A DNA stretch of 64,000 nucleotides from a bacterium (lineage in GTDB: Bacteria > Patescibacteriota > Minisyncoccia > Phycocordibacterales > Phycocordibacteraceae), in the NCBI GenBank assembly GCA_037200965.1, contig JBBCGK010000001.1:896001-960000 (forward strand). Reading direction: 5' to 3'. Below are positions 6,287 through 63,211 of this stretch, piece by piece (position 1 is the stretch's first letter; each line of letters begins with the position of its first letter). Under the pieces are notes generated by a model. The model was given only the letters and a program-made list of their open reading frames with translations, made no database searches and was not told the origin of the DNA. Position numbers and translations under genes: made by a program.

Positions 6287-6316
6287 TTGACAGGATCATT
6301 CTTATAGTGTAAATAT
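6287..6316 (+). promoter_or_regulatory. sigma70-like promoter candidate for the sortase gene
   Basis: TTGACA at 6287-6292, a 17-nt spacer, then tgtAAATA at 6308-6315. ATG at 6329 with essentially no leader. Confidence 0.25.
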
Positions 6317-12584: not shown

Positions 12585-12605
12585 AGGATATAGAGAATAG
12601 CACAC

Positions 12606-15761: not shown

Positions 15762-15795
15762 GACGTACAGCATACCAAGCTGCTATGCTTCGTGC

Positions 15796-19154: not shown

Positions 19155-19190
19155 CAGCACTCGCGCCATGCGCGGGTGCTGTATACTTTT
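19155..19190 (+). terminator. hairpin plus U-tract between the 18839 gene and smc
   Basis: cagcactcgcgcc / gcgcgggtgctg, 12 bp with 1 mismatch, followed by tatacttttt. Overlaps the TATACT leaderless element of smc. Confidence 0.4.
19182..19187 (+). promoter_or_regulatory. -10-like TATACT placed 6 nt before the smc ATG (leaderless arrangement)
   Basis: TATACT-ttttat-ATG(19194). No Shine-Dalgarno sequence. Confidence 0.35.
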
Positions 19191-19193
19191 TAT

Positions 19194-24105: not shown

Positions 24106-24207
24106 ATTGTATTTCTCCTTCAGTTCCTTACTCTATAACGCCGACAAAGAGACCTAAGATGTCATGTCGTTCATCGTTCCAACAGGAGCGCATGTTATAC
24201 TTCCTCC

Positions 24208-24423
24208 ATGCTTACGGCCGTATACAAGAAAGTCAGGAGCGGATACGTTGCCTGGATCGAGGAGGTGCCTGGCGTGCTGACGCAGGGAAAGTCGCGCGTC
24301 GAGGCGCGCGCGAATCTTGCTGATGCGCTTCGTGAATTCATCGCGGCGCGGCGTGACGCTACACGACGAAGCTCCGTACGTGGAAGCGCTCCCCTCAAGC
24401 GCGAGCGCATGGCGCTCGCATAG
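24208..24423 (+). CDS. hicB: HicB-family antitoxin
   Basis: …YVAWIEEVPGVLTQGKSRVEARANLADALREFI… HicB/UPF0150 pattern. TATACT-N6-ATG leaderless start. Confidence 0.6.
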   Translation: MLTAVYKKVRSGYVAWIEEVPGVLTQGKSRVEARANLADALREFIAARRDATRRSSVRGSAPLKRERMALA

Positions 24424-26740: not shown

Positions 26741-26783
26741 GCAAATTGACTCGCAAGCCTTCTTTTGGTACCCTGCTTCATAC

Positions 26784-27206
26784 ATGTTGATGATCCGTTT
26801 CCAGCGCATCGGCCGGACCAATGATCCGGCATTTCGCATTGTCGTCCTCGAAAAGGCGCGGAGCCCCAAGGCTGGAAGTCCTTTGGAGCTTGTCGGCACT
26901 TATAACCCGAAGACCAAGGCGGTTACCCTTAAGGAAGACCGCATTACGTATTGGATAAGCAAGGGCGCCCAGGTCTCGCCGTCGCTCCATAACCTCCTTC
27001 TTAATAAAGGCGTAGTTACGGGCAAAAAGATAAACGTGCTTCCGAAGAAAACCTATACGAAGCCGGAAGAGCCGGTAGCCGAAGCCGTCGCAGCTCCGGC
27101 AGAGTCTGCGCCGGAAGCGCCGACTGAAGCGGAAGTCGCCGCAGAAGCGGAGCCTGCTGCGGAGGAAACCCCGGCAGCCGAAGAGGCAGCCGCTCCCGCG
27201 GCCTAG
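26784..27206 (+). CDS. rpsP: 30S ribosomal protein S16 with Ala/Glu/Pro-rich C-terminal tail
   Basis: MLMIRFQRIGRTNDPAFRIVVLEKARSPKAGSPLELVGTYNP… Start taken at M43 of ORF 26658..27206. Confidence 0.85.
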   Translation: MLMIRFQRIGRTNDPAFRIVVLEKARSPKAGSPLELVGTYNPKTKAVTLKEDRITYWISKGAQVSPSLHNLLLNKGVVTGKKINVLPKKTYTKPEEPVAEAVAAPAESAPEAPTEAEVAAEAEPAAEETPAAEEAAAPAA

Positions 27207-36638: not shown

Positions 36639-36680
36639 CCCTTCATCGGCGCTCGGTGCGCGTGATACACTGTTCCTTAC

Positions 36681-36878
36681 ATGAATTCGATAACGGCGAA
36701 ATCAAGGAAATCGGACGTGCGCCTCAGGGCGTACGTGGCCGAGATGGTGCGCGAGGTGCTTGACGATCCCGACTTCGGACTCGAGCTTTCAGGTTATGCC
36801 CGCCGACGGCTTGCAAAGGCGAAAAAAACCCGTGCCAAGGGTATTCCGCTCTCCGCGATCCTGAAGAAGTATTCCTGA
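36681..36878 (+). CDS. putative antitoxin of the RelE/ParE-type TA pair
   Basis: 65-aa basic protein immediately upstream (2-nt gap) of the RelE/ParE-like toxin. Confidence 0.4.
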   Translation: MNSITAKSRKSDVRLRAYVAEMVREVLDDPDFGLELSGYARRRLAKAKKTRAKGIPLSAILKKYS

Positions 36879-37463: not shown

Positions 37464-37616
37464 GGCATTCTCCTTAAGTACGGCCATGTACGGCCGGATT
37501 AGGGTGGAAACAGGTCGCGGGAGCAACTGTACCTGACAATAAGCATTGTTGGTAATATTGTCAAGTATTCAAACGGGCCAGCGGTAAGTATGTACAAGCG
37601 TTAGAATGGCACTATT

Positions 37617-39293
37617 ATGGCGACCGATACCGTACAACGCGTCAAAGCGAAGCTCTCGATCATCGACGTCGTCACGCCGTACGTGAAGCTTACGAGAGCA
37701 GGGCGGCACTATCGGGGCCTCTCTCCCTTCAACAAGGAGAAGACGCCGTCGTTCTTCGTCTCTCCCGACCGCGGCACGTACTACTGCTTCTCGAGTAACC
37801 AGGGCGGCGACATCTTTACCTTCATCGAAAAGATGGAAGGCGTCGATTTCAAGGGCGCTCTCAAGATCCTCGCGGAGAAAGCGGGCGTCGAGATCGTCTA
37901 CGAAGGGAATTCGGGCGCCGATCGCTCGCGTTCGGAGCGGCTTCGCGAAGCGATGGCAAAGGCATCGGAGTTCTATATGCGCGGGCTTTCCGAAGGAACA
38001 CCCGCGTACGACTACGCGCTTTCGCGGGGGCTCTCCAAAGAAACGATTACGGGCTGGCAGCTCGGGTTCGCGCCTCCGGAATGGCGGATGCTCCTCGAAA
38101 CGCTTTCGGGACAGGGCTTCACGCTCGACGAGCTCAAAGGCGCGGGGCTCGTCAAGGAGGCGGACGGAAAGCCCGGCACGTACTACGACCGCTTCCGCAA
38201 CCGCCTCATGTTCCCGATACGCGACAGCGCGGGACGCACCGCCGCCTTCACGGGCCGATCGCTTGACCTAAACGACCAGGCGAAATACCTCAACAGTCCG
38301 GAGACCGAGCTGTACAGGAAATCGGAGATCCTCTTTGGCATGGACCGGGCGAAGGATGCGATACGCACGAGAGGGTTCGCGATACTCGTCGAGGGGCAGA
38401 TGGATCTTCTCCATGCGCACCAGGCCGGATTCACCAATTCCGTCGCGCTCTCGGGCACCGCGCTCAGCCCCGAGCACCTCGCGCTCATCAGGCGCTATGC
38501 GGACAATCTGATGCTCGCCTTGGACGGCGACCGCGCGGGCCTCGCGGCAAGCGCCAAGAGCGCGGTCGCGGCGCTCTCGGCAGGCCTTCGGGTGAAGGCG
38601 GTACGGCTTCCGAAGGGAGAAGACCCGGCGGATCTCATCAGCCGCGATCCGAAGGAGTTCAAGCAGCGGGTCGCGGACGCCGCGAGCATCATCGAGTTCT
38701 TCCTCTCGGTGCTTGCGGAAGCGGAGAAAGACAAGCACCGGCTGGTGATGGCGGCTGAGAAGATCGTGCTTCCGCTTCTGGCGGCGGTCAGGAGTCCTCT
38801 CGAGCGCGAGCACTTCGTCGGCATCGTCGCGCGAACGCTTGAGACGACGCCGGAGGCGGTGCGCGCCGCGCTCCCGCGACAGAGCGTTTCGGTCGCCGCG
38901 CGAAAGTCGATGACCTATGCCGTCGGCTCTCCTCGGCAAGTACTTAAGGATTCCCAGGCGCTCCAGCTTCGCGCAGCCGCTGCGTGCTACGCCGAAAGCC
39001 TGCTCGCGAAGCGCGTGAAAGCGGAGTACGAGCGCATCGCGGGCATACCGCTCCCGGGCGAGGCGCCGGACGAGCGCGCGATCTTCGAGATAGGGCAGGC
39101 GCTTGGCGAATCTCCCGAAGAAGGCGCCGCCGACGATCTTATCAGGGCGTTCGAACTGAGCATCGTGCGCGAAGCGCTCGCCGAAGCGACCGCGGCGCTT
39201 CGCAAGGCGGAAGCCGCGGGCGATAAGGACGCCGCGGACGCCGCGATGAAGCGGTCGCAGGAATTAAGTGTGCGTTTGGCCTCGCTTTCCTGA
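37617..39293 (+). CDS. dnaG: DNA primase
   Basis: Zn-ribbon (…YCFSSNQGGDIFTFI…) and TOPRIM (…ILVEGQMDLL…) motifs. Confidence 0.93.
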   Translation: MATDTVQRVKAKLSIIDVVTPYVKLTRAGRHYRGLSPFNKEKTPSFFVSPDRGTYYCFSSNQGGDIFTFIEKMEGVDFKGALKILAEKAGVEIVYEGNSGADRSRSERLREAMAKASEFYMRGLSEGTPAYDYALSRGLSKETITGWQLGFAPPEWRMLLETLSGQGFTLDELKGAGLVKEADGKPGTYYDRFRNRLMFPIRDSAGRTAAFTGRSLDLNDQAKYLNSPETELYRKSEILFGMDRAKDAIRTRGFAILVEGQMDLLHAHQAGFTNSVALSGTALSPEHLALIRRYADNLMLALDGDRAGLAASAKSAVAALSAGLRVKAVRLPKGEDPADLISRDPKEFKQRVADAASIIEFFLSVLAEAEKDKHRLVMAAEKIVLPLLAAVRSPLEREHFVGIVARTLETTPEAVRAALPRQSVSVAARKSMTYAVGSPRQVLKDSQALQLRAAAACYAESLLAKRVKAEYERIAGIPLPGEAPDERAIFEIGQALGESPEEGAADDLIRAFELSIVREALAEATAALRKAEAAGDKDAADAAMKRSQELSVRLASLS

Positions 39294-40745: not shown

Positions 40746-40826
40746 CTCCCGCGTTCCCGATCGGCCCCCGCAAAGGGGCCGATTGTCTTGTACCGGAAGT
40801 ACCGTGCGTGCTATCGTATGCGGACT

Positions 40827-41240
40827 ATGTCGGCACAAGGAACATTCGCGACCGCGCTCAACTGCATGGATGGACGCTGCCAGGAGAAGGCATACATGTT
40901 CGCACAGCAGGCATCCGGCGCGGACTTTATAGATATGATCACCGAGCCCGGCATCGACGGGCTTCTCTCCGGGACGCATTCAGTGGTTTCTGCGGAGGAT
41001 ATTCCCGGAAAGATCTCTTGGATACGGGCCAAGGCCGAAATCTCGGCGAAAGGGCACGGGTCAAAGCAGTGCGTCATTTTCGGACACTGCGGTTGCGCGG
41101 GCAACCAAGTTACGTTTGAAGAACACAGGGCGCACCTTCTCGCGGCTCTTGAGAAAGTTCGCGGATGGGGGCTTTTTGATGAAGTAAGAGCAGCGGCATT
41201 CACCGAAGACTGGACCCTTGAAGAGGTTCGCAGCGCCTAA
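40827..41240 (+). CDS. beta-carbonic-anhydrase-like protein (C-x-D-x-R … G-H-x-x-C motifs); start uncertain
   Basis: …ALNCMDGRCQE… and …VIFGHCGCAGN… spaced about 70 aa apart, as in beta-CA zinc ligands. Confidence 0.4.
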   Translation: MSAQGTFATALNCMDGRCQEKAYMFAQQASGADFIDMITEPGIDGLLSGTHSVVSAEDIPGKISWIRAKAEISAKGHGSKQCVIFGHCGCAGNQVTFEEHRAHLLAALEKVRGWGLFDEVRAAAFTEDWTLEEVRSA

Positions 41241-41847: not shown

Positions 41848-41930
41848 ATGTGATATTCCCCCTGTTAGGTCCAGACTGTGCGTACTATACCACGGGTGCT
41901 GATCTGATGCAACTTCGCTATACTTAGACT

Positions 41931-44738
41931 ATGCGGCCGGATGCATCATTTGAAAAGTCATATAAGCAACTCAATGCGGAGCAGAAACTCGCGGTCGACA
42001 CCGTCGAGGGGCCGGTGATGGTGATCGCGGGACCCGGGACCGGGAAGACCCATATCCTCACGCTCCGCATCGCGAACATCCTCAAGGAAACCCAGGCGAA
42101 CCCCGGAAACATTCTCGCCCTCACGTTCACCGATTCCGCGGCGCGCACGATGAAGAGGCGTCTCGCGGAAATTATCGGAGAAGAATCTGCGCGCGGCGTC
42201 GCCATCGATACGTTCCACGGATTTGCGGGCAGGGTGCTGGAGCGCTTTCCGGACCATTTCGGCGGCTACGGAACAAGACGGCTCATGGGAGACGTCGAAC
42301 AAGTCCTTCTCATGCGCGAGGCGATAGAGACGGCGGACATAGAGGAGATCCGGCCTCCGAAAGCGCCCTATACCTATCTCGACGAACTCCGAACTCTCTA
42401 TGACACGCTTACCCGCGAAGCGGTCCCGCTCGACACGTACCTTGCCTGGGGAACGGAGGAGCGGGCGCGCATACAAAGCGACCCCTCGCTCGCGTACAAG
42501 CGCGGCACGAATACGGGCGAACTCACAAAAGCGGGCCAGGAGCGCCTTGCGCGGATCGGCAAGGTCGACGAGGCGGTGCGCGCGCTTATACGGTATGAGG
42601 AGCTAAAAACGGAAAAGGGAAAGTACGACTTTTCGGATGTTTTGAGGGTGGTCATAGGGCGCATCGGGGAAGACGCGACGCTTCGCGCGGAACTCCAGGA
42701 ACAATATCAGTATGTCCTTGCGGATGAGCACCAGGATGCCAATGCGCTCCAGCACAAGCTGCTTTCGCTGTTCGCGATTGACGATTTCCCGAACATCTTC
42801 ATCGTCGGGGACGAGAAGCAGGCTATCTATCGCTTCCAGGGGGCGGAAGCGGGAGGCTTCGGCGATTTCCTCGCGCAATTCCCGCGAACCAAAGTCATTA
42901 CCCTTGTCTCATCCTTCCGCTCATACCAGGACGTGCTCGACCGGGCGCATGCGGTCATAGAGCCGACAGGCCCTCATACGCGTCTCATCGCCACCCGCGG
43001 CGAGGCAGGCGAGCGCGTATCGCTCATCGTCGGCGCGGATCCTCTTGAGGAGCGTTCCAAAGTCTGCCGAAAGATAGCGGAACTCATAGAAAGCGGCGTC
43101 CCGCCGCACCATATAGCGGTCATAAGCCGGAAAAACGAGATCGCTAATCTTGTCGCGGCGGAGCTTGCCGGTATCGGCGTCCCGGTCCTTCGGGCGGGAG
43201 ATATATCGCTTTCCTCGCGCCCGCTCATCCGTGCCTTTCTCGCGCTCATGACATACGCTGCCGATCCGCTCCGCACTGACGCGCTTCGCGAGGCGCTTCT
43301 TGCGCCATGGTGGGAGCCCCCCTTCATCGAGCGCCTGCAGCTTCTGCGCACGACTTCCGATTCGGAACTTCCCCGCACTCTCGCGAAGCGGTATCCGGAG
43401 GTTGGCGCGATATTTGAAGAGGGGATCCGCCGGGGCGCGTCCCATACGCCGCTCGAATGCTTTTCGGCGCTCATGACTCTTTCCGGTGCCCGCGACTACT
43501 TCCTCGCGCATGCTGACGCGCTCGAGGACCTGCCGCTCATGCGCCATCTTTCAATGCATCTTGAAGAGGCGGCGAGCCTCGAGCCGGAGGCGAGCTTCGC
43601 CGAGGTAATGGCACGGCTTATACGAGCCAGGGAGCATGATCTGAGTCCGCTTAAGGCCGCGGAGACCGAGCGGGAAGGTTCGGTCACGGTCATCACGGCT
43701 CATAAGGCCAAGGGCATGGAATTCGCGCAGGTGTTCATTCCCGACGCGACCGAGCAGGGATGGGAGCGCGGCGGGAAAAGCGCCATGATCCCGAGTCCGT
43801 TCGAGAATAAGCAGGACGAGGGCGATTCGCGAAGGCTCCTCTATGTCGCGCTCACGAGAGCGAAAGACCGTGCGTATCTTTCCTATGCGAGAGAAACCAA
43901 AGACGGCAAAGAGCGTTCCCTCTCCGCGCTTCTGCCGCCCGGCCTCTCGGAAGAGAAAGTCGAAGCTTCGCCGCTCCCGACGCTTCATAGGACAATTGCC
44001 GTATCGGACCTCGTGCGGCAGCTCGCGCGCGATTATCTCGTGAATGATGGCCTTGCGCCGACGGCGCTCAACCAGTATCTGCATTCACCCGCGGAATTCT
44101 TCGCTTCCCGTGTTCTTCGCATCAAGGAGCCGCCAAACGGCCCGACGATCCTTGGGAGCGCGGTGCATACGGCCGTTGCCGCTTTCCTTGAAGGGAAAGG
44201 TGAAGCGGCTGCGTATGCCGCGCTCGCACGCGCATTCGCGACTTCGCTCCTGCCGCGCGATGCGGTCTTCAGCGTGCTTGAGCGCGAGGCCCGCGAGATA
44301 TTCGCCGCATACCTTTTGAGGCCGCTTCCTACTGGCACTCCACGACTCATCGAGGAGTCGTTCGACACGATTCGCGAAGTCGCGGGCGTCTTGGTCCGCA
44401 TGAAGGGAAATATCGACGCGGTATTCGATACGCCGGAAGGGGCGTGCATCGTCGACTTCAAGACCGGAAGCAGCGTCTCCGCGAAGAACCAGGAATATGT
44501 GCGTCAGCTTATGTATTATGTGCATCTCCTTGAAAAAAACGGCGAAGTTCCTACGCGCGCTTCCCTTGTGGCGCTTACGGCAAGCGCCGTCAAGGAACTT
44601 CCCGTTCCGGTCACGGAAGAATCAAAGCGCGAGATGCTTGCCGAGTTTGATGCTGTAGCTACCGAGCTTCTGTCCGGGAAATGGCGAGCGGGGGAGCCGT
44701 CGCAGTACGATGCGCTCCTTCGGCTTTTTAATGCCTGA
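41931..44738 (+). CDS. UvrD/AddA-family ATP-dependent helicase with C-terminal PD-(D/E)XK (Cas4/AddB-like) nuclease domain
   Basis: Walker A AGPGTGKT, UvrD motifs, C-terminal …IDAVFDTPEGACIVDFKTGS…QLMYY… nuclease motif. TATACT-N6-ATG start. Confidence 0.8.
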   Translation: MRPDASFEKSYKQLNAEQKLAVDTVEGPVMVIAGPGTGKTHILTLRIANILKETQANPGNILALTFTDSAARTMKRRLAEIIGEESARGVAIDTFHGFAGRVLERFPDHFGGYGTRRLMGDVEQVLLMREAIETADIEEIRPPKAPYTYLDELRTLYDTLTREAVPLDTYLAWGTEERARIQSDPSLAYKRGTNTGELTKAGQERLARIGKVDEAVRALIRYEELKTEKGKYDFSDVLRVVIGRIGEDATLRAELQEQYQYVLADEHQDANALQHKLLSLFAIDDFPNIFIVGDEKQAIYRFQGAEAGGFGDFLAQFPRTKVITLVSSFRSYQDVLDRAHAVIEPTGPHTRLIATRGEAGERVSLIVGADPLEERSKVCRKIAELIESGVPPHHIAVISRKNEIANLVAAELAGIGVPVLRAGDISLSSRPLIRAFLALMTYAADPLRTDALREALLAPWWEPPFIERLQLLRTTSDSELPRTLAKRYPEVGAIFEEGIRRGASHTPLECFSALMTLSGARDYFLAHADALEDLPLMRHLSMHLEEAASLEPEASFAEVMARLIRAREHDLSPLKAAETEREGSVTVITAHKAKGMEFAQVFIPDATEQGWERGGKSAMIPSPFENKQDEGDSRRLLYVALTRAKDRAYLSYARETKDGKERSLSALLPPGLSEEKVEASPLPTLHRTIAVSDLVRQLARDYLVNDGLAPTALNQYLHSPAEFFASRVLRIKEPPNGPTILGSAVHTAVAAFLEGKGEAAAYAALARAFATSLLPRDAVFSVLEREAREIFAAYLLRPLPTGTPRLIEESFDTIREVAGVLVRMKGNIDAVFDTPEGACIVDFKTGSSVSAKNQEYVRQLMYYVHLLEKNGEVPTRASLVALTASAVKELPVPVTEESKREMLAEFDAVATELLSGKWRAGEPSQYDALLRLFNA

Positions 44739-44882
44739 TGGCCGGGATCGTGTCTACGTGCCTGTAAAACGGCTTATACTAGGGAGGATTTTAGTGCGAT
44801 TCCTTGACAGATCTGTAGAGTCATGTATACTACGCTCAGTACCGAGGGCATGAGCCTGGTCCAATTGAAGGAGGTCATTCAT

Positions 44883-45314
44883 ATGCGTATAACTATGATT
44901 CTGGCCGTTATCGGCCTGGCATTCACTCTCACGGCGTGCGATGACGCCGTCGGTGAGAGCGCCTGCCAGAAGCGCTACACGTCCGCGGAGTGCGTCATGC
45001 ACACCGACGCGGTTGCGATCTCGAAGGCGCTCGGTGCAGGCGTCTGGACCCGCGTGAATGACGTCTATATCGCGAACGCCTCCGAGCGCTACCGCGTTCT
45101 CGCGGCCCGCGCGGACGGCAAGATCACGGTCACGGTCCAGGTCAGGGACGACCTGCCGCTCTGGCGCGCCTACGACCTCGATGCCCGCGGCAATCTGATC
45201 GCGGTGCGCGGCCAGATCGCGCACTATCCCGAAGGCGCCGATCCGAAGGACTGGGCCGAGGTCCATCGCGCCGCCACCGAGTTCTTCTTAAACCATAAAG
45301 CCCAGGAGGGCTAG
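44883..45314 (+). CDS. lipoprotein, hypothetical
   Basis: aaggagg Shine-Dalgarno sequence. MRITMILAVIGLAFTLTAC lipobox. Confidence 0.5.
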   Translation: MRITMILAVIGLAFTLTACDDAVGESACQKRYTSAECVMHTDAVAISKALGAGVWTRVNDVYIANASERYRVLAARADGKITVTVQVRDDLPLWRAYDLDARGNLIAVRGQIAHYPEGADPKDWAEVHRAATEFFLNHKAQEG

Positions 45315-45359: not shown

Positions 45360-46073
45360 CTATTTCACCGCCGCAAGCGCGGCTTCGACCTTCTGCTTCA
45401 TCGTATCGTACGGGAATGCGCCGTTTATGAGAACGGGTTCCGATCCCCGGACGAGGATGACGCTATAGGGCGTACCGTTCGCGCCTGCCGCCTTTGCATT
45501 ATCGGAGTCGGCCGCGACGCGGTCCTTGGCGGTGCCAGCCGAAAGGCAGGCGGTGACGGCGTCTCCGGAGACCCCTGCTTGCGTTGCAAGGCTCGGATAC
45601 GTCGACGGGTCGGCGGGCTGGTTCGCGAACAGGAGATCGCTGAATTTCCAGTATGCTTCGTTCCCGCCGAGATTCGCGACGCATTCGGAAGCTTCCGCGG
45701 CACTTTGTGCGTTCGGATGCAGCTCGGTCAGGGGGAAATTGCGGAATATCCAGGCAACCTGCCCGTTTGCTCCATACTCGTTCACGATCCGGTGGAGGGT
45801 GTCGTTGAAAGATTTGCAGAACGGACAGTCGAAGTCGGAATATTCGACAATGATGACCGGCGCGGCGGGATTCCCGAGGATATGGTCGTCCGAGCCTGGC
45901 GGCCGCACCAAGGAAAGGTCACTTGTCGCTCCCGCAGTATCGGTGACGTTTTTCGAACTTACGTAATACACGGCGCTTGCGACAATGAGGCCGGAAACGA
46001 TGAGTACGGCCGGGATGAGGATGTTTTGGGACATGGAAGAAGTATAAAGGGGAGAGAGGGAAGCGCAAGGCAT
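45360..46073 (-). CDS. DsbA-like thiol:disulfide oxidoreductase (membrane-anchored)
   Basis: CPFC active site (…YSDFDCPFCKSFN…) in a thioredoxin fold, with an N-terminal TM helix. Confidence 0.75.
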   Translation of the reverse strand: MPCASLSPLYTSSMSQNILIPAVLIVSGLIVASAVYYVSSKNVTDTAGATSDLSLVRPPGSDDHILGNPAAPVIIVEYSDFDCPFCKSFNDTLHRIVNEYGANGQVAWIFRNFPLTELHPNAQSAAEASECVANLGGNEAYWKFSDLLFANQPADPSTYPSLATQAGVSGDAVTACLSAGTAKDRVAADSDNAKAAGANGTPYSVILVRGSEPVLINGAFPYDTMKQKVEAALAAVK

Positions 46074-46111
46074 TTTATCCCGTCCTTATTTTCCTTCGGT
46101 ACAGTATCAGC

Positions 46112-46498
46112 ATGAAGAAGGATTTTGACGGATGGAACGACCAGAAGAAGTCGATTGACGAGCGTGCCCACGCGCCGCTCTATCATGAAGGTGAAGTTCG
46201 GTGGTGCCGCCTAGGCACGAACATCGGATTCGAGCAGGATGGTACCGGAAACGGCCGAGCGCGTCCGGTGCTTATCCTCAAAGGATTCAGCAGGCAAGTG
46301 TGCCTAGTCGTTCCGCTTACCAGTTCGCAAAAGAAGAATCCATACCATGTTTCTGCTGGAAGGATAGGAGGGCGTGATGCCTTCGCGATTATTTCCCAAG
46401 TGCGGCTTATCGATACGAAACGATTGGATCAGCCTCTCGTCTATCTCGAGCACGCAGTATTTGAACGTATCAGAAAAGCCGTCAGAAACTTGTTCTGA
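46112..46498 (+). CDS. MazF/PemK-family endoribonuclease toxin (no adjacent antitoxin ORF)
   Basis: …FDGWNDQKKSIDER…EGEVRWCRLGTNIGFEQDG…RPVLILK…VVPLTSS…RLIDTKRL, typical MazF-like layout. Confidence 0.6.
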   Translation: MKKDFDGWNDQKKSIDERAHAPLYHEGEVRWCRLGTNIGFEQDGTGNGRARPVLILKGFSRQVCLVVPLTSSQKKNPYHVSAGRIGGRDAFAIISQVRLIDTKRLDQPLVYLEHAVFERIRKAVRNLF

Positions 46499-47161: not shown

Positions 47162-48430
47162 CTAGCGGTTTTTCGCTATCCAGAGGGCGACCGCCGCCGC
47201 GTCGACAAGCGTCGTGGTCTCGAATTGCGGCAGGTCCTTAAGCGCGGGCGCTTTGCCGCCCGCCTCGTCTTTGCCGTACGCGAGGAAGTAGCGGATGCCG
47301 CGCTTTTCGGCCTCCTTCGCCTGGTCGCCAAGCGCCTTGTCCCGAAGATTCGTGAACGCACGGACTCCTTTCATGCGCAATTCGTCGGCGAACGTCTCCG
47401 CGGCGCGCACGCCGTCTTTTTCCGTCCCGATATAGATCTCGGGAGACGAGGAGCGCCTCGGCAGGTATCCGTGCGTCTCAAGAAAGTCCGCAAAGCTCAC
47501 GTCGCCGACCGCAAAGCCGACTGCGGGAAGCGGGTCGCCGCCAAATAGCGCTACCAGTTCGTCGTAGCGTCCGCCGCCAAATAGCGCGCGGGGGTTCGCA
47601 GGATCGGTATCGAAGACTTCGAATACGAGATCGGTGTAGTAATCGAAGCCGCGGACAAGCGCGGGATCGAACAGAGCGTTCCCGATACCCTCCTCGTGGA
47701 GCGCTTCGACGAACGCCAGAATGCGGTCTTTCTCCCGCCGTACCCCCTCGTTCGTCGCGGACTCGATCTCGTCGAGCGGATCTTTCTGTGAAAGCGCCCG
47801 CGCGGCAGCTTCCCACTCGGCAGGCGGCATCTTTTCCTTCTTGTCCAAAAGGCGCGTGTACGCGCGCATCGCTTCGGGATCAAGTCCTGCGGCCAGGGCC
47901 GCGCAGGACAGGAGCTTCCTCGAATTGATGCGGATTACGTACTCTTCGCGTTTCGCGCCGAACGCTTTCATGATCCGGCTCGCGACGGTAACGATTTCCC
48001 GGTCCGCTTCTCCCGCGGGGAGTCCCACCAGATCGACGTCGATCTGATAGAACTCGCGAAGACGGCCTTTCTGCGGCCGTTCATATCGGAAGCGGCTGCC
48101 GATCGAAAACCACCGAAGCGGGAACGCGAGCTCCCGGCGCTTCCCGGCGATCATGCGCGCGAGCGTCGGCGTCATCTCGGGGCGCAGCGTGACGCTTCTG
48201 CCCCCGCGGTCAGTGAATGTGTAGGTTTGCTCGTTGATAATCTCCTCGTTGCCCTTGCTGAGGTACAGCTCCGAGCGCTCCATCGGAGAGGCGTTGTATT
48301 CTTCGTATCCCCAGAGCTCAAGCACGTTCCGCGCCGTACTGAAAATGCCCGTGAGCTGCGCCCAGTCTTCGGGATAGAAATCGCGCACTCCTTTGTAAGG
48401 CTCGGTATCGAGCTTTCCGCGCTCCGTCAT
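47162..48430 (-). CDS. hisS: histidine--tRNA ligase
   Basis: Class II motifs and HisRS-specific regions (…GVRDFYPED…, …FQIDVDLVG…, …GGGRYDELV…). Confidence 0.93.
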   Translation of the reverse strand: MTERGKLDTEPYKGVRDFYPEDWAQLTGIFSTARNVLELWGYEEYNASPMERSELYLSKGNEEIINEQTYTFTDRGGRSVTLRPEMTPTLARMIAGKRRELAFPLRWFSIGSRFRYERPQKGRLREFYQIDVDLVGLPAGEADREIVTVASRIMKAFGAKREEYVIRINSRKLLSCAALAAGLDPEAMRAYTRLLDKKEKMPPAEWEAAARALSQKDPLDEIESATNEGVRREKDRILAFVEALHEEGIGNALFDPALVRGFDYYTDLVFEVFDTDPANPRALFGGGRYDELVALFGGDPLPAVGFAVGDVSFADFLETHGYLPRRSSSPEIYIGTEKDGVRAAETFADELRMKGVRAFTNLRDKALGDQAKEAEKRGIRYFLAYGKDEAGGKAPALKDLPQFETTTLVDAAAVALWIAKNR

Positions 48431-48466
48431 GCGCTGTAGTGTAGCAGATGCAGGGATGCCAGGGAA

Positions 48467-49033: not shown

Positions 49034-49279
49034 TTAATGAAAGCCGCTGAGGGCGTATGCCGCTATCGACGCGGAGACGAATACGTGCGCCGCAAGGGCC
49101 GGAATGGCGACGGCTGAACTGTGGCCGTACCGGAGCCAGTGATATGCCGCCACGAGCGTATAGACGGCCCAGAGTCCGAAGAGAACGGCGACGATGACCG
49201 GCAGAAAATGTTCCAGGTCGACAGTGCCAAGATAGGAGGCGAGCGGGAACTGGACCGGGGGAAGCGTCTCTCCTTGCAT
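49034..49279 (-). CDS. small membrane protein (81 aa)
   Basis: ORF with two predicted TM helices; 3-nt gap to the downstream gene. Confidence 0.35.
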   Translation of the reverse strand: MQGETLPPVQFPLASYLGTVDLEHFLPVIVAVLFGLWAVYTLVAAYHWLRYGHSSAVAIPALAAHVFVSASIAAYALSGFH

Positions 49280-49281
49280 CG

Positions 49282-50040
49282 CTAATAGTATGCCATGACA
49301 AGCCGGGGGCGGCCATAGTGGTCGTTGCGCAACCCGGCGCGCATAGCGCCGTTCTTCGTGAAAAGAGCGAGCGCTTCCGGGCCGCGCCCGCTATCGACTT
49401 CGCACCAAAGCTCGCCGCCAGGATTCATATGCGCCGGCGCGGTTTTAGCGATTTCGCGGATAAGAGACAGTCCGTCGCTTCCGGCAAACAGCGCCAGCCG
49501 CGGTTCCCACGCGGCTACGTCCGCGTCGAGCGCCCGGCCTTCGGGAATATAGGGCGGATTGGCTGCGATCACGTCAAAGGTCTCATCGCCAAACGGTTTG
49601 AAGAGATCCCCCGTCCTCACCCGGCAGCGCCGCTCGTCAAGCCCGTTCGAGCGCATGTTGTTCCCGATCTGCGCGGCGTGTTCCGGAACAAGTTCCCCGA
49701 AGGATACTTCCGCATCCGGTATGTGCTTAAGCACGGCAAGACCGATCGCGCCCGATCCCGCACACATATCGAGAAAGCGAAAGTTCCGCGTTCCGAATCG
49801 CGACCTCAGATGCGCGATCATGTTTTCCGTCCACCATTCCGTTTCGGGGCGGGGGATAAGCGGCCGGGAGCCGAGTCCTATCCTAAGTCCGAGAAAGGGT
49901 ATCCAGCCGATCACGTATGCGAGCGGTTCGCCGCTTGCAAGGCGCGCCCGGTCGCGTTCGAACTCTTCGCATGCTCTGCCGGCGTATTTTTCATCGAGAA
50001 GCTGCCGCTCTTCTTTGGTAAGCACGGTCATCGGCCGCAT
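49282..50040 (-). CDS. prmC: release-factor glutamine N5-methyltransferase
   Basis: SAM motif DMCAGSGAIG and NPPY motif ANPPYIPEG. Start at M29 of ORF 49282..50124 (TTTAAT-N6-ATG). Confidence 0.85.
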   Translation of the reverse strand: MRPMTVLTKEERQLLDEKYAGRACEEFERDRARLASGEPLAYVIGWIPFLGLRIGLGSRPLIPRPETEWWTENMIAHLRSRFGTRNFRFLDMCAGSGAIGLAVLKHIPDAEVSFGELVPEHAAQIGNNMRSNGLDERRCRVRTGDLFKPFGDETFDVIAANPPYIPEGRALDADVAAWEPRLALFAGSDGLSLIREIAKTAPAHMNPGGELWCEVDSGRGPEALALFTKNGAMRAGLRNDHYGRPRLVMAYY

Positions 50041-50055
50041 GCTACCATTAAAACC

Positions 50056-50490
50056 ATGCGCATACATTTCTGGAATACGGTTTTCGGGCTTCTTTTTATC
50101 CTCCTCGTTATTTCCGGAACCCACTGGCTTGCCGCGCAGGGGAAGCTTCCATCTTCCGTTTCCCTCGGCGCATTCATGCTCATGGCTCTCGCTATTTTCC
50201 GGCTCGTGCGCCTCTTTACGTACGACAACATCACCGCCTTCGTGCGCGGCTGGTTCGAGGGCTGTCGTCCGGGCTCGTGCGCCGGTACGCTCGGCACTCT
50301 TATCAACTGCCCGTGGTGCACGGGGCTCTGGTTCGCCTTCTTCGTACCCTTCTTTTACTACGCGACCCCGTATGCCTGGTTCCCCATCCTCATTCTCGCC
50401 CTGGCCGCGGTCGGTTCCTTTTTCCAGATCGTCTCGAATCTTGCGGGCTGGTATGCCGAAGGAAAGAAGCTGGAAGTACGGGGCCGTTAG
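50056..50490 (+). CDS. DUF1360-like integral membrane protein
   Basis: Only the C-terminal 144 aa of ORF 49318..50490 are non-antisense. CPWCTGLWFAFFVPFF motif with multiple TM helices. Confidence 0.55.
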   Translation: MRIHFWNTVFGLLFILLVISGTHWLAAQGKLPSSVSLGAFMLMALAIFRLVRLFTYDNITAFVRGWFEGCRPGSCAGTLGTLINCPWCTGLWFAFFVPFFYYATPYAWFPILILALAAVGSFFQIVSNLAGWYAEGKKLEVRGR

Positions 50491-50499: not shown

Positions 50500-50586
50500 T
50501 TGCGTTTATGTACCCGAAGCATATACTCGCCCATTAGATAGAGGGGCTAATCAAGGTCTTTCTATAGAACCCGAAGGGGGTCAACA

Positions 50587-52032
50587 ATGAGCAATCAGGA
50601 TACTACCACCGGTGGCCCTCCAAAGGATACTGGATGGGATGCCGCATGGTCTGGCGCGCGCGAGCGCCTCCGGAAAGAACTCGGCGATGCCACGTTCAAC
50701 GCATGGATCGGCCCACTCAGGCTCGTCAGCGCCGATAGGGACAATATCCAGATCGGCGCGGCAAAGCCGTTCGCACGCAATTGGGTGGCCAACCATTACG
50801 TTACCCGCATCGACCGCGCGCTTCGGGCGGAAGGCAAAGCTCCCGACTCGCTCTCGATCGTGCTTTGCACCTCGGTACCGCCGCCGAACACCGGGGCGGT
50901 TACCAGCGGCACTCCGGTCGAGCTTCCTCCGTCAGCCTATCCGGCGTCAGCGCTCATGCGTAACGGCGAAAAGCCTGCGGCAGAGCCGAGAAACCTCTGG
51001 AACAGGCCGCTTCATCCGAGCCAGACCTTCGGCAGTTTCGTCGCGGGCTCGGAGAACGAGTTCGGATACCGCGCGGCGGAAAGCTTCGCGGATGGCAGCA
51101 CCGAAAGCGGGCTGCTCTATATCCACGGCGGCTTCGGCTACGGCAAGACGCATCTTCTGAACGCGACCGCGCTCGAAGCGCGCAAACGCGGGAAGAGGGC
51201 GCTGTTTCTCGGCGCGGAGGATTTCATGCGCCAGTTCCTCGGTGCGCTGCACCGGCGGGACACGCTTTCCTTCAAGGACGAGCTTCGGGCTGCCGACATG
51301 CTGCTGATCGACGATCTACAGCACATCTGCCGCTCGCACACGACCGTGTCGGAATTCCTCCATACCGTGAATGCCTTCGCCGATTCGCGCCGGAAACTCA
51401 TCGTCGCTGCCGATCGCGCGCCGGCGGCCCTCGAAACGCTGAGCGCTGATGTCAGGTCGCGCCTTACGGGCGGCCTTACGATCGGGCTCGATAAGCCGGG
51501 CCGGGACACGCGTTTGGCGATTCTCAAGTCGCGCGCGAACGAGTTCACCCGCGCAAGGCCGCACGCGGTGCTTCCCGAAGAAGTGCTCGAGCGCATCGCC
51601 GATATGCCGGACGCGAGTCCGCGCGATCTCCTCGGCGTGTTCACGAAGCTTGCCACCTACGCCGACCTCACCAAGAAGCCGGTCACGCTTGATGTCGCCG
51701 AAGAGGCCGTCGGCCAGCGCTCCGCGCCCGGCCGCAAGATCTCGATCGAGGACATCCAGCGCAAGACCGCCGAGTTCTACAAGCTCGACATCCGCGACTT
51801 CCAGTCGCCGCAGCGCACCCGCAGGGTGGCCCGGCCAAGGCAAGTGGCGATGTTCCTCGCGCGCGAGCTCACGATGCGTTCGCTTCCCGAAATCGGGCGG
51901 CGGTTCGGCGGGCGGGACCATACCACGGTCCTGCATGCCTGCCGTCGCATCGCGGAACTTTGCGAAGAAGACAGGGACTTCAAGGACGAAGTCGGGTTCC
52001 TTCGGGACATGCTTACGCGTCGCGGCCTTTAG
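50587..52032 (+). CDS. dnaA: chromosomal replication initiator protein DnaA
   Basis: AAA+ Walker A GGFGYGKTHLL, sensor motifs, C-terminal HTH (…ARELTMRSLPEIGRRFGGRDHTTVLHACRRI…). agggggt Shine-Dalgarno sequence. Confidence 0.95.
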   Translation: MSNQDTTTGGPPKDTGWDAAWSGARERLRKELGDATFNAWIGPLRLVSADRDNIQIGAAKPFARNWVANHYVTRIDRALRAEGKAPDSLSIVLCTSVPPPNTGAVTSGTPVELPPSAYPASALMRNGEKPAAEPRNLWNRPLHPSQTFGSFVAGSENEFGYRAAESFADGSTESGLLYIHGGFGYGKTHLLNATALEARKRGKRALFLGAEDFMRQFLGALHRRDTLSFKDELRAADMLLIDDLQHICRSHTTVSEFLHTVNAFADSRRKLIVAADRAPAALETLSADVRSRLTGGLTIGLDKPGRDTRLAILKSRANEFTRARPHAVLPEEVLERIADMPDASPRDLLGVFTKLATYADLTKKPVTLDVAEEAVGQRSAPGRKISIEDIQRKTAEFYKLDIRDFQSPQRTRRVARPRQVAMFLARELTMRSLPEIGRRFGGRDHTTVLHACRRIAELCEEDRDFKDEVGFLRDMLTRRGL

Positions 52033-52960: not shown

Positions 52961-53125
52961 CTATTGTACCGGATTCGCCGGAATCGTCCGGACATTCGTG
53001 ATGATTCCGGGATCCCGAGTTGTCGCGTCGGACGCGATCGTCCTCATAAGGACGGTCGGGACAAGGAACGTGAGCATGCTGAGCCCGAGAAGGGCGACGA
53101 GGATTATGACGAATGTTTTCTTCAT
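52961..53125 (-). CDS. small signal-peptide ORF (54 aa), ATGA-overlapped with the upstream gene
   Basis: MKKTFVIILVALLGLSMLTFLVP… TACAAT lies 7 nt before the ATG. Not in the ORF track (under 60 aa). Confidence 0.25.
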   Translation of the reverse strand: MKKTFVIILVALLGLSMLTFLVPTVLMRTIASDATTRDPGIITNVRTIPANPVQ

Positions 53126-53523
53126 CGGCCGGATTGTAGCACGGGCCGGAGCTCGAGGGAATCCGCCGTAAGGCTGCCGTCGCTGTTTGCGGTTCCCGAC
53201 ACCGACACGTTCTCCCCGGCTGCCACATCAGCAAGGCTTCCCGGGGCGCTTTTGGCGACCGTGGTCGAAGCGCTCGTAAGGACGATCCGGGTGCTTCCGT
53301 TCATCATCCGGATCGTGATGCTGCCCGCGTCCTTCGAAAGGACGGTACCGGAAACAAGGCCGCTTCGTCCGGCAAATCCGCCGCGCATGCCGCCCGCGAA
53401 ATTCCCGGGAGCCATTCCTCCGCGCGCGGGCCCGTGCCCTCCCGCGTATGCGATACCCGAATAAAAGCCGATGCCAAGCGCGATAACCGCGATGCCGATA
53501 CCGTAGAGTACGTTCTTCCGCAT
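53122..53523 (-). CDS. small membrane-anchored Gly-rich protein downstream of the ABC efflux operon
   Basis: MRKNVLYGIGIAVIALGIGFY… Start at M13 of ORF 53122..53559. Confidence 0.4.
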   Translation of the reverse strand: MRKNVLYGIGIAVIALGIGFYSGIAYAGGHGPARGGMAPGNFAGGMRGGFAGRSGLVSGTVLSKDAGSITIRMMNGSTRIVLTSASTTVAKSAPGSLADVAAGENVSVSGTANSDGSLTADSLELRPVLQSGR

Positions 53524-59149: not shown

Positions 59150-60799
59150 TTAGGCACCGATCATGTCCCGCTCGATGTCTTCGAACGTACCACCGGTCTT
59201 CTTCCCCGGATTGAATATGCCGAGCGGGTCGAAAATCTTCTTCGTCTCCTTAAACAGCGAGATCATCTTCTCACCGAAGAGCATCGGGAGATAGGGAGTG
59301 CGGATAATTCCGTCATTGTGTTCGCCGGTCGTCGTTCCGCCGTATTTGATGACGAGCGCGTACACTTTCGGCGCAAGCTCAAGCACGGTTTTCCTGCTCT
59401 CGGGCTTAGCAAGGTCCATGAGCGGGATGATATGGAAATTGCCGTTTCCGATATGCCCGGCGATGGTATAGATGAAATTGTCCTTGTATTCCTCAAGGAG
59501 TGCATTGAGTTCCGGAAGGAACTGCGGGTATGAGTCCGGCGGTACGACGAAATCATCGATGAACGGAGAGGCGTAGAGGCCGTGGAGATTCTTCCGGAGA
59601 AGCGAAAAGCTTTCGCGCCTGACGATCCAGTACTTCTCCGATTCCTGCTCGTTCTTCTCGACTTTGGTTTGTACGGAAAGGCCCGAAAGGGCGTCCCGCG
59701 CGGCCTCGGCCTTCCGGTCGGCCTCCTCGATCGTATCCTCGGCGAATTCGGCCATGAGGATGAGCTTGGGGACGCCGCCCGTAAGGACCATTTCGGCTTC
59801 CGGAAGAAAAGAGATGCCGAGCCGGGCCGCCTTCGCGAAACCCATCTGCGAAAGCATTTCCGGCAGGAACTTCACGGCAAGCTTGAACGTCTGGTCATCA
59901 TAGGATTCGAACGATTCGGGATCGAGCGGCAGTATCCTGTGGACGATGTTCGGAAGGATAGCGAGATCGGAAAGGAAGATGACGAGCATGGCGCGGTGCG
60001 CCTTGGGGACGACGAGGCGGAGCTTCGCGCGCGTCATGAGCGCGAGGGTTCCCTGCGCGCCGCAGATGAGCTTCGCGAGATTGAAGGCGCCGTCCGCGCT
60101 GCGGACGCTCCACAGGGCATAGCCCGCCGAATTCTTCGATACCTTAGGCCTGTGCGCCTCAATCTCCGCGGCGTTCTCCCTCAGGAGGCTGTCCATGTTG
60201 CGGTATATTTCCCCTTCGAGATTCCGAAGAGCTTTCTTTTGTTCGAGTTCGCCGGGGGAGAGGGTCTTGAAGGTTGCAGGAGAGCCATCCGAGAGGATGA
60301 CGTCGATCTCCTCGATATAGTCCTCGGTCTTCCCGTATTTGAGTGTGCGTTCCCCGCCCGCGTTGTTATTTACGATCCCGCCCATGGCCGCGATTTCGCG
60401 GGACGCGGGATATGCGGGCATGACCTGGTCGCCCCCGGCGAGGGTTTCCTTCTCGAAGTCTCGATAATAGGCGCCGGGCTCCGTGACGGCATAGCCGTCG
60501 CCGACCTCAAGCACATGGTTCATATATTTCGTGAATACCGCGACGATCGAGGTTGTGAGCGGGCCGCCGGACATGTCGGTTCCGGCGGAGCGCGCGGTTA
60601 TGGAAACATCCTGTCCGTCCTTTTTCGCTTCCGCGACTGCCTTCACGAGATTCGAAACGTCTTCCGCGTCCTTCGGATACACCACGAGCGAAGGGGTGCG
60701 CGAAAAGATGCTCGTGTCGCGGCTGTACTTTTCTCGCTCGTCCGCCGACTCCGTTACATCTCCCTTCAAGACCCTTTTTAATTCGTTTTGCAATTCCAT
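59150..60799 (-). CDS. FAD-linked oxidase (GlcD/D-lactate dehydrogenase-like, PCMH-type FAD-binding domain)
   Basis: FAD-binding region …PSLVVYPKDAEDVSNLVK…ITARSAGTDMSGGPL… Start at M100 of ORF 59150..61096, in a TATACT-N6-ATG arrangement. Confidence 0.75.
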   Translation of the reverse strand: MELQNELKRVLKGDVTESADEREKYSRDTSIFSRTPSLVVYPKDAEDVSNLVKAVAEAKKDGQDVSITARSAGTDMSGGPLTTSIVAVFTKYMNHVLEVGDGYAVTEPGAYYRDFEKETLAGGDQVMPAYPASREIAAMGGIVNNNAGGERTLKYGKTEDYIEEIDVILSDGSPATFKTLSPGELEQKKALRNLEGEIYRNMDSLLRENAAEIEAHRPKVSKNSAGYALWSVRSADGAFNLAKLICGAQGTLALMTRAKLRLVVPKAHRAMLVIFLSDLAILPNIVHRILPLDPESFESYDDQTFKLAVKFLPEMLSQMGFAKAARLGISFLPEAEMVLTGGVPKLILMAEFAEDTIEEADRKAEAARDALSGLSVQTKVEKNEQESEKYWIVRRESFSLLRKNLHGLYASPFIDDFVVPPDSYPQFLPELNALLEEYKDNFIYTIAGHIGNGNFHIIPLMDLAKPESRKTVLELAPKVYALVIKYGGTTTGEHNDGIIRTPYLPMLFGEKMISLFKETKKIFDPLGIFNPGKKTGGTFEDIERDMIGA

Positions 60800-60848
60800 A
60801 GGACCAGTATACGGCCTCGAAGGGTCGGTATGATATAGTGTACGGCCT

Positions 60849-61175
60849 ATGGCATTCAAGAACACGTTGCGGAGGGGGAGCATACGAAACGTCATTTTCC
60901 GGGAAGGCAAATCGTGGTATGGCGCGGCGCTCGAACTCAATATCGTCGAATCCGGCGAAACCCCCCAGGAGGCGCTGTTCCTTCTCGATGATGCGGTCAA
61001 GGGATATATCGAGGCTGCCCGGAAAGCAAAGCTCTCGATCGGCGTGCTCAACCAGGAGATAAATCCGGAGTATGAAAGGCTTTGGAATATCGGCAACTCG
61101 AAATCCGACCGTCCGAAGGCGGGGAAGCGCGAAATCTACAGCGTTGCGTCCCAGCAGATAGCGGCGCTCGCATAA
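60849..61175 (+). CDS. hicB: HicB-like antitoxin (second copy)
   Basis: …IRNVIFREGKSWYGAALELNIVESGETPQEALFLLDDAVKGYIE… HicB/UPF0150-like. Confidence 0.5.
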   Translation: MAFKNTLRRGSIRNVIFREGKSWYGAALELNIVESGETPQEALFLLDDAVKGYIEAARKAKLSIGVLNQEINPEYERLWNIGNSKSDRPKAGKREIYSVASQQIAALA

Positions 61176-61183
61176 CCTCTCTC

Positions 61184-61420
61184 ATGCCGCGCGGCCTCAA
61201 TAACTGGACTGCGGGCGCGGTTATCCGCTTCCTTAAAACGCGCGGGTTCGCGCAAAGCCATGCGCGCGGCAGCCACTTTTATTACAAGAGCAAGCAGGGA
61301 GGCAGGGACCGTCTCGTGTGCGTACCGGTTCATGGCAAAAACGGTTTGATCGCCATCGGTACGATGAAAGGCATCGTCAAGCAGTCCGGTATTTCCGAAA
61401 CCGAGTGGCGCCAAGAGTAA
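61184..61420 (+). CDS. hicA: HicA-like toxin (second copy)
   Basis: …AVIRFLKTRGFAQSHARGSHFYYKSKQGGRDRLVCVPVHGKNGLIAIGTMKGIVKQSGI… Start at M35 of ORF 61082..61420. Confidence 0.55.
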   Translation: MPRGLNNWTAGAVIRFLKTRGFAQSHARGSHFYYKSKQGGRDRLVCVPVHGKNGLIAIGTMKGIVKQSGISETEWRQE

Positions 61421-63164: not shown

Positions 63165-63211
63165 AGGAACGTAGTATACGAGAGGCGGGGCGTATCTGCT
63201 ATGCTACTCCC

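Follow-up and report, generated by a model that had tools for sequence, protein, structure and literature searches.

Start codons behind a -10 hexamer in the window

The window analysed here is a stretch of 64,000 nucleotides (assembly GCA_037200965.1, contig JBBCGK010000001.1, positions 896,001 to 960,000; 59.6% G+C) from a Kaiserbacteria-like bacterium of the Candidate Phyla Radiation (CPR), an ultra-small organism with a genome of about 1 Mb. Its subject is a layout of gene starts in which a -10 hexamer lies a few nucleotides before the ATG start codon and no Shine-Dalgarno sequence is found. A first-pass annotation of the window had cited four copies of the strict form of this layout, TATACT-N6-ATG, and had proposed that the corresponding messenger RNAs are leaderless. 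All four copies were found where it had placed them, but the count was incomplete, as a fifth copy on the minus strand (46046-46032) had been overlooked. On the plus strand, the gene of a UvrD/PDDEXK helicase-nuclease (41931-44738) carries the motif at 41919..41933. The public gene call has the same start, and an in-frame TAG within the spacer (41925-41927) makes 41931 the earliest start possible. The smc gene (19194-22439, plus strand) carries the motif at 19182..19196; its product begins with MLKRLEIAGFKSF and matches Pfam AAA_15/AAA_23 from residues 1-4. At hicB/UPF0150 (24208-24423, plus strand) the form is TGtTATACT-N6-ATG (24193..24210), the ATG is the first start codon of the open reading frame (ORF) and the Pfam domain begins at residue 1. 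On the minus strand, the start of the gene for an FAD-linked oxidase (59150-60799, motif at 60797..60811) is also that of the public call (549 amino acids), and the in-frame extension upstream of it scored as non-coding (-17 vs +29). The fifth copy (46032..46046) precedes a DsbA-like gene (45360-46034, minus strand), for which orthologue alignments start at residue 1 and the public start is 46073.

Variants of the hexamer, many of them extended by an upstream TG (TGnTANNNT), were found at further genes, including those which the first-pass annotation had cited for rnhB, hisS, dnaG, the MazF-like gene and the small ORF at 53125. The rnhB gene starts at ATG 15796 (plus strand) behind TGcTATGCT-N6, its RNase HII domain beginning at residue 5, and dnaE at ATG 15761 (minus strand) behind TGgTATGCT-N7, with a PHP domain from residue 6. 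These genes lie back to back (15759..15798), and the 34-bp intergenic region has room for nothing besides their extended -10 boxes with the spacers. The hisS gene (47162-48430, minus strand) is preceded by TGcTACACT-N7-ATG (48428..48446), dnaG (37617-39293, plus strand) by TAGAAT-N9-ATG (37602..37619; zinc-ribbon domain from residue 3), and the PemK/MazF toxin gene (46112-46498, plus strand) by TACAGT-N6-ATG (46100..46114). The 54-aa ORF (52961-53125, minus strand) has TGcTACAAT-N7-ATG (53123..53141), a putative promoter within the 3' end of the upstream gene. The divergent genes for UppP/BacA (ATG 63164, minus strand; TATACT-N8-ATG) and a Na/Ca exchanger (ATG 63212, plus strand; TGcTATGCT-N6-ATG) have a 47-bp intergenic region in common (63162..63214).

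The variant cited for prmC, TTTAAT-N6-ATG, is also present, at 50052-50038, 3 nt away from the coordinates first given for it, but it is probably not the functional unit. We rejected the corresponding start at ATG 50040 in favour of TGgTAGCAT-N7 (50047-50029, minus strand), which fits orthologue N-termini and promoters better; the most likely start of prmC is ATG 50031, which follows this box. From there its N-terminus, MTVLTKEE.., aligns with orthologues that begin MT(K/R)DE.. behind TGnTAnnnT-N6/7. On the plus strand, the gene of a 144-aa membrane protein (50056-50490, coding score +25) starts at ATG 50056 behind TGcTACCAT-N7, a box kept in 8 of 9 orthologues. The extended -10 boxes of the two genes interlock within ATGCTACCAT (50039-50048), only 24 bp separate the genes, and the whole unit spans 50029..50058.

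Further sites on the plus strand were found at rpmF (L32; 16762..16780, TGgTAGCTT-N7-ATG), where the Pfam L32p match is in register from residue 6; at rpsP (S16; 26766..26786, TGgTACCCT-N9-ATG), with TTGACT 17 nt upstream and the S16 domain about 7 residues after the ATG; at a 65-aa gene upstream of parE, a putative antitoxin gene (36663..36683, TGaTACACT-N9-ATG); and at a 108-aa gene (60849-61175) upstream of hicA (60831..60851, TGaTATAGT-N9-ATG), whose predicted promoter and that of the FAD oxidase are divergent across 49 bp. Those on the minus strand precede a CARDB-domain protein (5406-6299; 6297..6311, TACACT-N6-ATG), a class II aminoacyl-tRNA synthetase (10842-12584; 12582..12602, TGcTATTCT-N9-ATG), where the putative promoter adjoins the dnaE stop codon, and an 81-aa protein (49034-49279; 49277..49293, TGgCATACT-N7 / TACTAT-N5-ATG), whose box is found in 4 of 6 orthologues. 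For the Pro_CA_2 protein (40809..40829, plus strand, TGcTATCGT-N9-ATG) the proposed start is 40827 and the public one 40866; this site is weaker evidence because the choice of start rested partly on the motif. The site at hicA (61173..61186, plus strand, TAACCT-N5-ATG) is a weak case. The gene identities given in the first-pass annotation agree with Pfam for the UvrD+PDDEXK helicase-nuclease, SMC, HicB/UPF0150, the FAD oxidase, RNase HII, HisRS, DnaG, PemK/MazF, the PrmC-like methyltransferase and DnaA.

The starts of the 58 window genes with complete 5' ends were curated. TANNNT was found 5-9 nt upstream in 24 of them, every start being ATG, and 13 of the 24 sites carry the TG extension. None of the 24 has a GGAG, GAGG, AGGA or GGGGG core 3-13 nt upstream, as the proposal of leaderless messengers had claimed. 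Among the other genes, 16 have a Shine-Dalgarno-like core, six overlap or abut the upstream gene (coupled), three have a -10 box at N4 or N11-13, possibly with a short leader, and nine are unclear. The genes with Shine-Dalgarno cores include those at 23440, 44883 and 58376/59005 as well as dnaA; that Shine-Dalgarno-led genes exist beside the others had been noted previously. The gene hyp163 (44804..44885, plus strand) illustrates the contrast: TTGACA-N16-TATACT is followed by about 45 nt of leader, which includes GAAGGAGG at a distance of 8 nt from ATG 44883 (public start 44823). Similarly, dnaA (50522..50589, plus strand) starts at ATG 50587, 6 nt after GGGGG, and its leader of about 50 nt follows a TATACT at 50522.

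At two gene starts without a Shine-Dalgarno sequence the box is more distant. At gyrB (2605-2631, plus strand) TGaTACAAT-N13 precedes ATG 2629, and at the gene of an RRM protein (52826-52845, minus strand) TACAGT-N11 precedes ATG 52828; these -10 boxes would yield leaders of about 4-7 nt, intermediate between leaderless and leadered.

Enrichment and conservation of the layout

The window holds 5 copies of TATACT-N6-ATG, where shuffled sequences lead one to expect 0.06 (100 dinucleotide shuffles, maximum 1). Only 14 TATACT hexamers are present on both strands together, and 10 of them are intergenic. TGnTANNNT-N7-ATG was found 6 times vs 0.32 expected. When the spacing was scanned independently of gene calls, TA[TC][AG][AC]T-Nk-ATG gave 8 occurrences at k=6, 5 at k=7 and about 1.3 at other spacings, and no peak appeared when GTG, TTG, CTG and ACG were tested in the same scan of the window. 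Since some curated starts had been picked with the motif in view, two motif-blind sets of starts were also used. The first followed the rule "first ATG of a coding ORF", compared with internal Met codons: TANNNT stood at 5-9 nt before 14 of 51 first ATGs and 3 of 261 internal codons in the window (Fisher p = 9e-10). The second consisted of the public gene calls on contig JBBCBH010010897.1 (960 kb, assembly GCA_037975565.1), which contains the window sequence (SRR28211700 carries it as well); 12 of 30 public starts have the motif, including 4 of 7 genes outside the window. The contig number, 10897, suggests a very large multi-contig assembly; instead of representing a binned genome, the CPR chromosome may have been carried along when a host or a community was assembled.

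The rpoD gene of the window led to 80 relatives at 69-91% identity, every one of them metagenome-assembled and labelled Kaiserbacteria, Parcubacteria, Paceibacteria or Patescibacteria (Candidate Phyla Radiation). The 80 related loci amount to 1.27 Mb and range from 37 to 66% G+C. In these loci the motif precedes 281 of 750 first ATGs (37%) vs 199 of 5733 internal Met codons (3.5%; p = 2e-154), and its TG-extended form 95 vs 10. TGnTANNNT-Nk-ATG was counted 70 times at k=6 and 60 times at k=7 over a background of about 22, with no peak for other triplets. The converse count gave the same picture: after every TGnTANNNT in 1.3 Mb, ATG is the commonest triplet at offsets 6 (4.6%) and 7 (4.2%) vs a background of 1.5%, and no GTG or TTG peak was found in the same 1.3 Mb. 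An enrichment check of the kind that the first-pass annotation had proposed for the whole genome thus gave, in the window and in the 80 related loci, a frequency at gene starts well above background.

The motif depends on gene context. It is found at 40-44% of the genes that are divergent from their upstream neighbour or at least 5 nt behind it, vs 13% of those that overlap or abut it. At same-strand gaps of 5-39 nt it precedes 44% of the genes. The TG-extended form is equally frequent at these gaps and at divergent genes (13% each), and Shine-Dalgarno cores are found at 4% of the former. In general, Shine-Dalgarno cores (GGAG, AGGAG) peak 6-9 nt upstream of about 14% of first ATGs in the window and about 5% in the relatives. 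The -10/ATG layout is the commonest one at gene starts in this bacterium and its relatives, at genes including dnaE, dnaG, smc, hisS, rnhB, rpmF, rpsP and prmC. Two predicted modes of initiation coexist, and the -10 layout is several times commoner than the Shine-Dalgarno one.

Individual genes keep the layout. TANNNT lies 5-9 nt before the ATG in 35 of 36 orthologues of the helicase-nuclease gene, 34 of 37 of hisS, 44 of 70 of dnaG, 16 of 24 of prmC and 20 of 41 of dsbA. The control genes gave low values: 4 of 44 for the rnh-like gene coupled to hisS, 3 of 23 for the translationally coupled bPH gene, 5 of 44 for rpoB and 1 of 22 for the RRM protein gene. Among orthologues the intergenic sequence and even the first protein residues diverge while the distance from box to ATG is kept. 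At the level of sequence, the -10/ATG layout is thus conserved gene by gene across this little-studied and uncultivated lineage.

The layout as a probable promoter and the rival explanations

Alignment of 295 first-ATG sites from the window and the relatives gave the logo T(44%) G(59%) n T A t A a/c T, in which the T, A and T of TANNNT are invariant and the backgrounds for the TG positions are 27% (T) and 23% (G). Judged by this logo, the motif is a sigma-70 extended -10 element (TGnTAnnnT). The sigma factor encoded by the window rpoD has regions 2, 3 and 4. Matches to a -35 hexamer of at least 5/6 were found at 7.5% of the sites vs 1.4% of controls, and most sites reach 3/6 or less. A trade-off between the TG extension and hexamer quality showed the expected trend (1.60 vs 1.81 matches), which was not significant (p = 0.14). 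A standard two-hexamer promoter scan of the window returned only canonical leadered promoters (44804 and 46578) and missed the leaderless-type sites, on which it is therefore uninformative. Spacers of 5, 6, 7, 8 and 9 nt were counted 20, 112, 80, 43 and 40 times, respectively. As N6 and N7 correspond to the normal distance from a -10 element to the start, we infer that transcription begins at or near the A of the ATG. At N6 sites a pyrimidine directly precedes the ATG in 80% and a G in only 5%, which fits the usual preference for a pyrimidine at -1 and a purine at +1. Folding of the first 40 nt of the putative leaderless mRNAs, counted from the AUG, is weaker than that of windows inside the same genes (-5.4 vs -8.4 kcal/mol; Wilcoxon p = 2e-4); in the same comparison this was not seen for Shine-Dalgarno-led genes.

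We consider it very probable that about 40% of the genes, here and in the relatives, have minimal sigma-70 -10 promoters that start transcription at the ATG and give leaderless mRNAs. The promoter would be reduced to the -10 box, often TGnTAnnnT, with little or no -35 element. RNA polymerase would initiate at the A of the ATG, exactly where the standard start falls at N6 spacing, or no more than 1-3 nt away from it, and the resulting mRNAs would have neither a 5' untranslated region (UTR) nor a Shine-Dalgarno sequence. On the model of E. coli, mycobacteria and Deinococcus, the 5'-terminal AUG itself would be recognised by the ribosome, without Shine-Dalgarno pairing. Leaderless initiation depends on a 5' AUG, and the restriction of the signal to ATG fits this dependence. 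A minority of genes would be Shine-Dalgarno-led, and those overlapping the preceding gene would presumably be translationally coupled. The widespread leaderless transcription suggested by the first-pass annotation is thus supported by the -10 logo, the N6/N7 spacing, ATG specificity, the lack of Shine-Dalgarno sequences, gene context and conservation, and the layout extends beyond the genes listed there, to 24 genes of the window and to the lineage as a whole.

The rival that survives best, although we regard it as improbable, is that the motif acts in translation: it would be a non-Shine-Dalgarno ribosome-binding or standby site in a longer 5' UTR, like the "group B" signals of the Bacteroidetes. 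This would agree with the rarity of Shine-Dalgarno cores at the gene starts of the relatives and with the abundance of the motif at same-strand genes with gaps of 5-39 nt, where a ribosome-binding site would be expected rather than a promoter. However, the fixed T, A and T of the logo, with TG two bases upstream, are those of a sigma-70 extended -10 element and not an A-rich tract, the spacing is the distance from -10 to transcription start and the pyrimidine at -1 fits such a start. In canonical TTGACA-N16 promoters, too, where a long leader and a Shine-Dalgarno sequence follow, TATACT is the -10 hexamer. Moreover, group B motifs are described in the GeneMarkS-2 survey as preceding all genes (PMC6028130), whereas the present motif drops to 13% at overlapping genes.

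Somewhat less probable still is that the promoters are real but that translation starts at a downstream codon, the mRNA leaders merely beginning with AUG. Several ORFs do contain an in-frame GTG or ATG 20-30 codons further on, and public annotation differs from the curated starts for dsbA, Pro_CA_2 and hyp163. These downstream candidates are nevertheless not preceded by Shine-Dalgarno sequences, and the Pfam domains of SMC, RNase HII, DnaE, DnaG, L32, BacA and HicB begin 1-7 residues past the proposed ATG. Orthologue alignments likewise extend to residues 1-7, and enrichment of ATG at N6/N7 would not be expected from a promoter with an arbitrary leader.

We give almost no weight to chance or base composition, by which AT-rich intergenic DNA and stop codons (TAA/TAG) would seed functionless TANNNT near starts. 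Stop codons can supply a TA 8-12 nt upstream of closely spaced genes, and the loose TANNNT, scanned without gene calls, peaks only modestly in the window (15 at N6 and 13 at N7 vs about 10 elsewhere). Shuffled sequences, however, fail to yield the observed number of TATACT-N6-ATG, first ATGs exceed internal ones about 70-fold in the TG-extended form, which has a sharp N6/N7 peak, the signal is specific for ATG, and conservation among orthologues is gene-specific with low values for control genes. A dispersed repeat, or an operator of one transcription factor's regulon, could account for the identical hexamer at six gene starts in the window, but was rejected as having next to no likelihood, since in an alignment of 10 sites conservation is limited to the ATG and to T, A and T within the hexamer, the flanks showing neither similarity nor a dyad, and since the hexamer varies freely among sites and orthologues (TATGCT, TACACT, TAGAAT and others).

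Several points weigh against leaderless initiation from these minimal promoters, or narrow its extent. The transcript 5' ends are deduced from promoter geometry. Sites with N8-N9 spacing (dnaG, rpsP, uppP and others) may give leaders of 1-3 nt, and upstream read-through transcripts may coexist, so that a gene would also be expressed from a leadered polycistronic mRNA. Weak hexamers, such as those of hicA (TAACCT-N5) and hyp81b, could be due to chance. The home-made gene caller overlooked at least three genes (pemK, the 50056 gene and the 60849 gene), which were entered by hand, and the starts of Pro_CA_2, rpsP, dsbA and prmC were picked with the motif in view. Finally, a search for 16S and 23S rRNA genes, from which the anti-Shine-Dalgarno sequence would have been read, covered the window, the adjoining 9 kb and the 80 related loci and found none.

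A broader proposal, which we put forward tentatively and hold to be possible rather than probable, is that leaderless initiation is the main mode of expression in Kaiserbacteria-like Parcubacteria, nearly every uncoupled gene having its own minimal extended -10 promoter and Shine-Dalgarno pairing being vestigial. It is suggested by the equal frequency of the TG-extended motif at gaps of 5-39 nt and at divergent genes and by the low use of Shine-Dalgarno sequences in the relatives (about 5%). If it holds, promoters would often lie within the 3' end of the preceding gene or in divergent intergenic regions of 24-47 bp, the missing initiation mechanism would be supplied for Parcubacteria without the 16S anti-Shine-Dalgarno motif, and ribosome reduction in CPR bacteria would be tied to initiation by recognition of a 5' AUG.

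Other signals were observed in the window. Between rnr and the putative rpsP promoter, positions 26677-26747 (plus strand) match the Rfam family suhB/mmgR (RF00519) with 51 bits vs a gathering score of 41. The element comprises two hairpins, a single-stranded GUUUCCUCCCU resembling an anti-Shine-Dalgarno sequence and, in front of a T-run, a terminator hairpin; a possible -10 box, TATGCT, lies at 26634. This family of small RNAs is mainly alphaproteobacterial, and the match is thus unexpected in a CPR genome, in which, besides, Shine-Dalgarno-led genes are a minority. At 46578-46460 (minus strand) a canonical TTGACA-N16-TACACT is followed by a 2-codon ORF only and then by a strong hairpin and T-run (GCCGTCAGAA..TTCTGACGGCTTTTCT). 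The transcript would be about 80 nt long, convergent with pemK/mazF and overlapping its 3' end; pemK/mazF has no adjacent antitoxin gene, and this RNA may be an antisense regulator. The window contains several toxin-antitoxin modules (hicAB-like pairs, parE with its small upstream gene, and pemK). An intein (Pfam Intein_splicing and Hint) with an NYN nuclease domain interrupts SMC near its N-terminal ATPase motif, at residues ~53-384. Just 3' of dnaA, 52170-52394 (plus strand) is publicly annotated as a 74-aa product, which matches GcrA (PF07750) and was not called by the home-made caller. Two transposase genes, 22451-23452 (minus strand) and 57240-58298 (plus strand), one of them rve/IS481-like and one IS30-like, are present in this genome of about 1 Mb.

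Comparison with known leaderless systems

The layout described here is the architecture of "group C" genomes in the classification of GeneMarkS-2, and the mechanism is for that reason already known. In that survey group C, whose operon-first genes have a Pribnow box at 6-8 nt from their start, comprises 1028 of the 4769 bacteria, chiefly Actinobacteria and Deinococcus-Thermus, and 25-50% of the transcription units of these genomes are predicted to be leaderless (PMC6028130). TANNNT is the typical group C model, and group C genomes using code 11 are nearly all high-GC (bioRxiv 10.1101/2022.07.25.500264). What would be new is the occurrence of this known architecture in a CPR lineage, not the mechanism. 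A full-text literature search, of incomplete coverage, returned no paper that connects leaderless initiation to CPR, Patescibacteria, Parcubacteria, Saccharibacteria or TM7x.

Tsurumaki et al. detected the anti-Shine-Dalgarno motif in only 48% of Parcubacteria and left the consequence open; the Parcubacteria without it overlap the group without ribosomal protein uL1 (PMC9297842). Leaderless initiation would offer a concrete answer to the question of how such bacteria start translation. The layout also bears on the annotation of gene starts in metagenome-assembled CPR genomes: apart from dsbA (public 46073, proposed 46034), Pro_CA_2 (40866 and 40827) and hyp163 (44823 and 44883), the products starting at 19194 (smc) and 2629 (gyrB) are not on public record, and these two genes are presumably annotated with other starts in the public calls. 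Genome compaction is a further aspect: an intergenic stretch of as little as 24-34 bp, filled by two -10 boxes and nothing else, can serve two essential genes. As a minimal expression signal, TGnTAnnnT-N6/7-ATG could serve genetic tools for CPR bacteria, which have very few.

Like the group C genomes of Mycobacterium tuberculosis, M. smegmatis, Corynebacterium, Streptomyces and Deinococcus deserti, the present lineage has TANNNT close to the start without a Shine-Dalgarno sequence, alongside Shine-Dalgarno-led genes. The signal marks the first genes of transcription units in group C, and here it is depleted at coupled genes; about 40% of gene starts have the layout here, and 25-50% of transcription units are predicted to be leaderless there. 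The differences are several. The bacterium belongs to the CPR/Patescibacteria, with a genome of about 1 Mb, whereas the main text of the survey names Actinobacteria and Deinococcus-Thermus (PMC6028130). The trait holds across 37-66% G+C, unlike code-11 group C, and the use of Shine-Dalgarno sequences appears much lower in the relatives of this bacterium. In addition, starts are ATG-only here, without a GTG peak, whereas mycobacteria also use 5'-GUG.

Extended -10 promoters of E. coli and Gram-positive bacteria similarly have a TG separated by one base from the hexamer and weak or absent -35 matches, and region 3 is present in the sigma factor encoded by the window. Here, however, the element lies at a fixed distance from the start codon and forms the predominant rather than a minority promoter class. 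The Bacteroidetes type, group B, differs in that the logo found here is TGnTAnnnT and is depleted at overlapping genes. In archaeal "group D" and in the cI gene of phage lambda (P_RM), the start codon likewise forms the very 5' end of the mRNA, and a Shine-Dalgarno sequence is not required. The lambda cI messenger is an isolated case in a host dominated by Shine-Dalgarno initiation, and archaeal group D, as presented in the survey, relies on a TATA/BRE box at about -26 (PMC6028130).

The closely packed divergent starts of the window can be compared with bidirectional promoters. The opposite-strand -10 boxes overlap at 50039-50048, and back-to-back pairs lie at 15769-15789 and 63173-63205. Warman et al., writing in Nat Microbiol in 2021, are said to have described bidirectional promoters that arise from the symmetry of the -10 element, in an 18-bp TANNNTA arrangement. 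At the prmC/membrane-protein locus, in contrast, the predicted starts are 25 bp apart, the extended boxes interlock through their TGn elements instead of forming the 18-bp TANNNTA arrangement, and both transcripts would be leaderless mRNAs.

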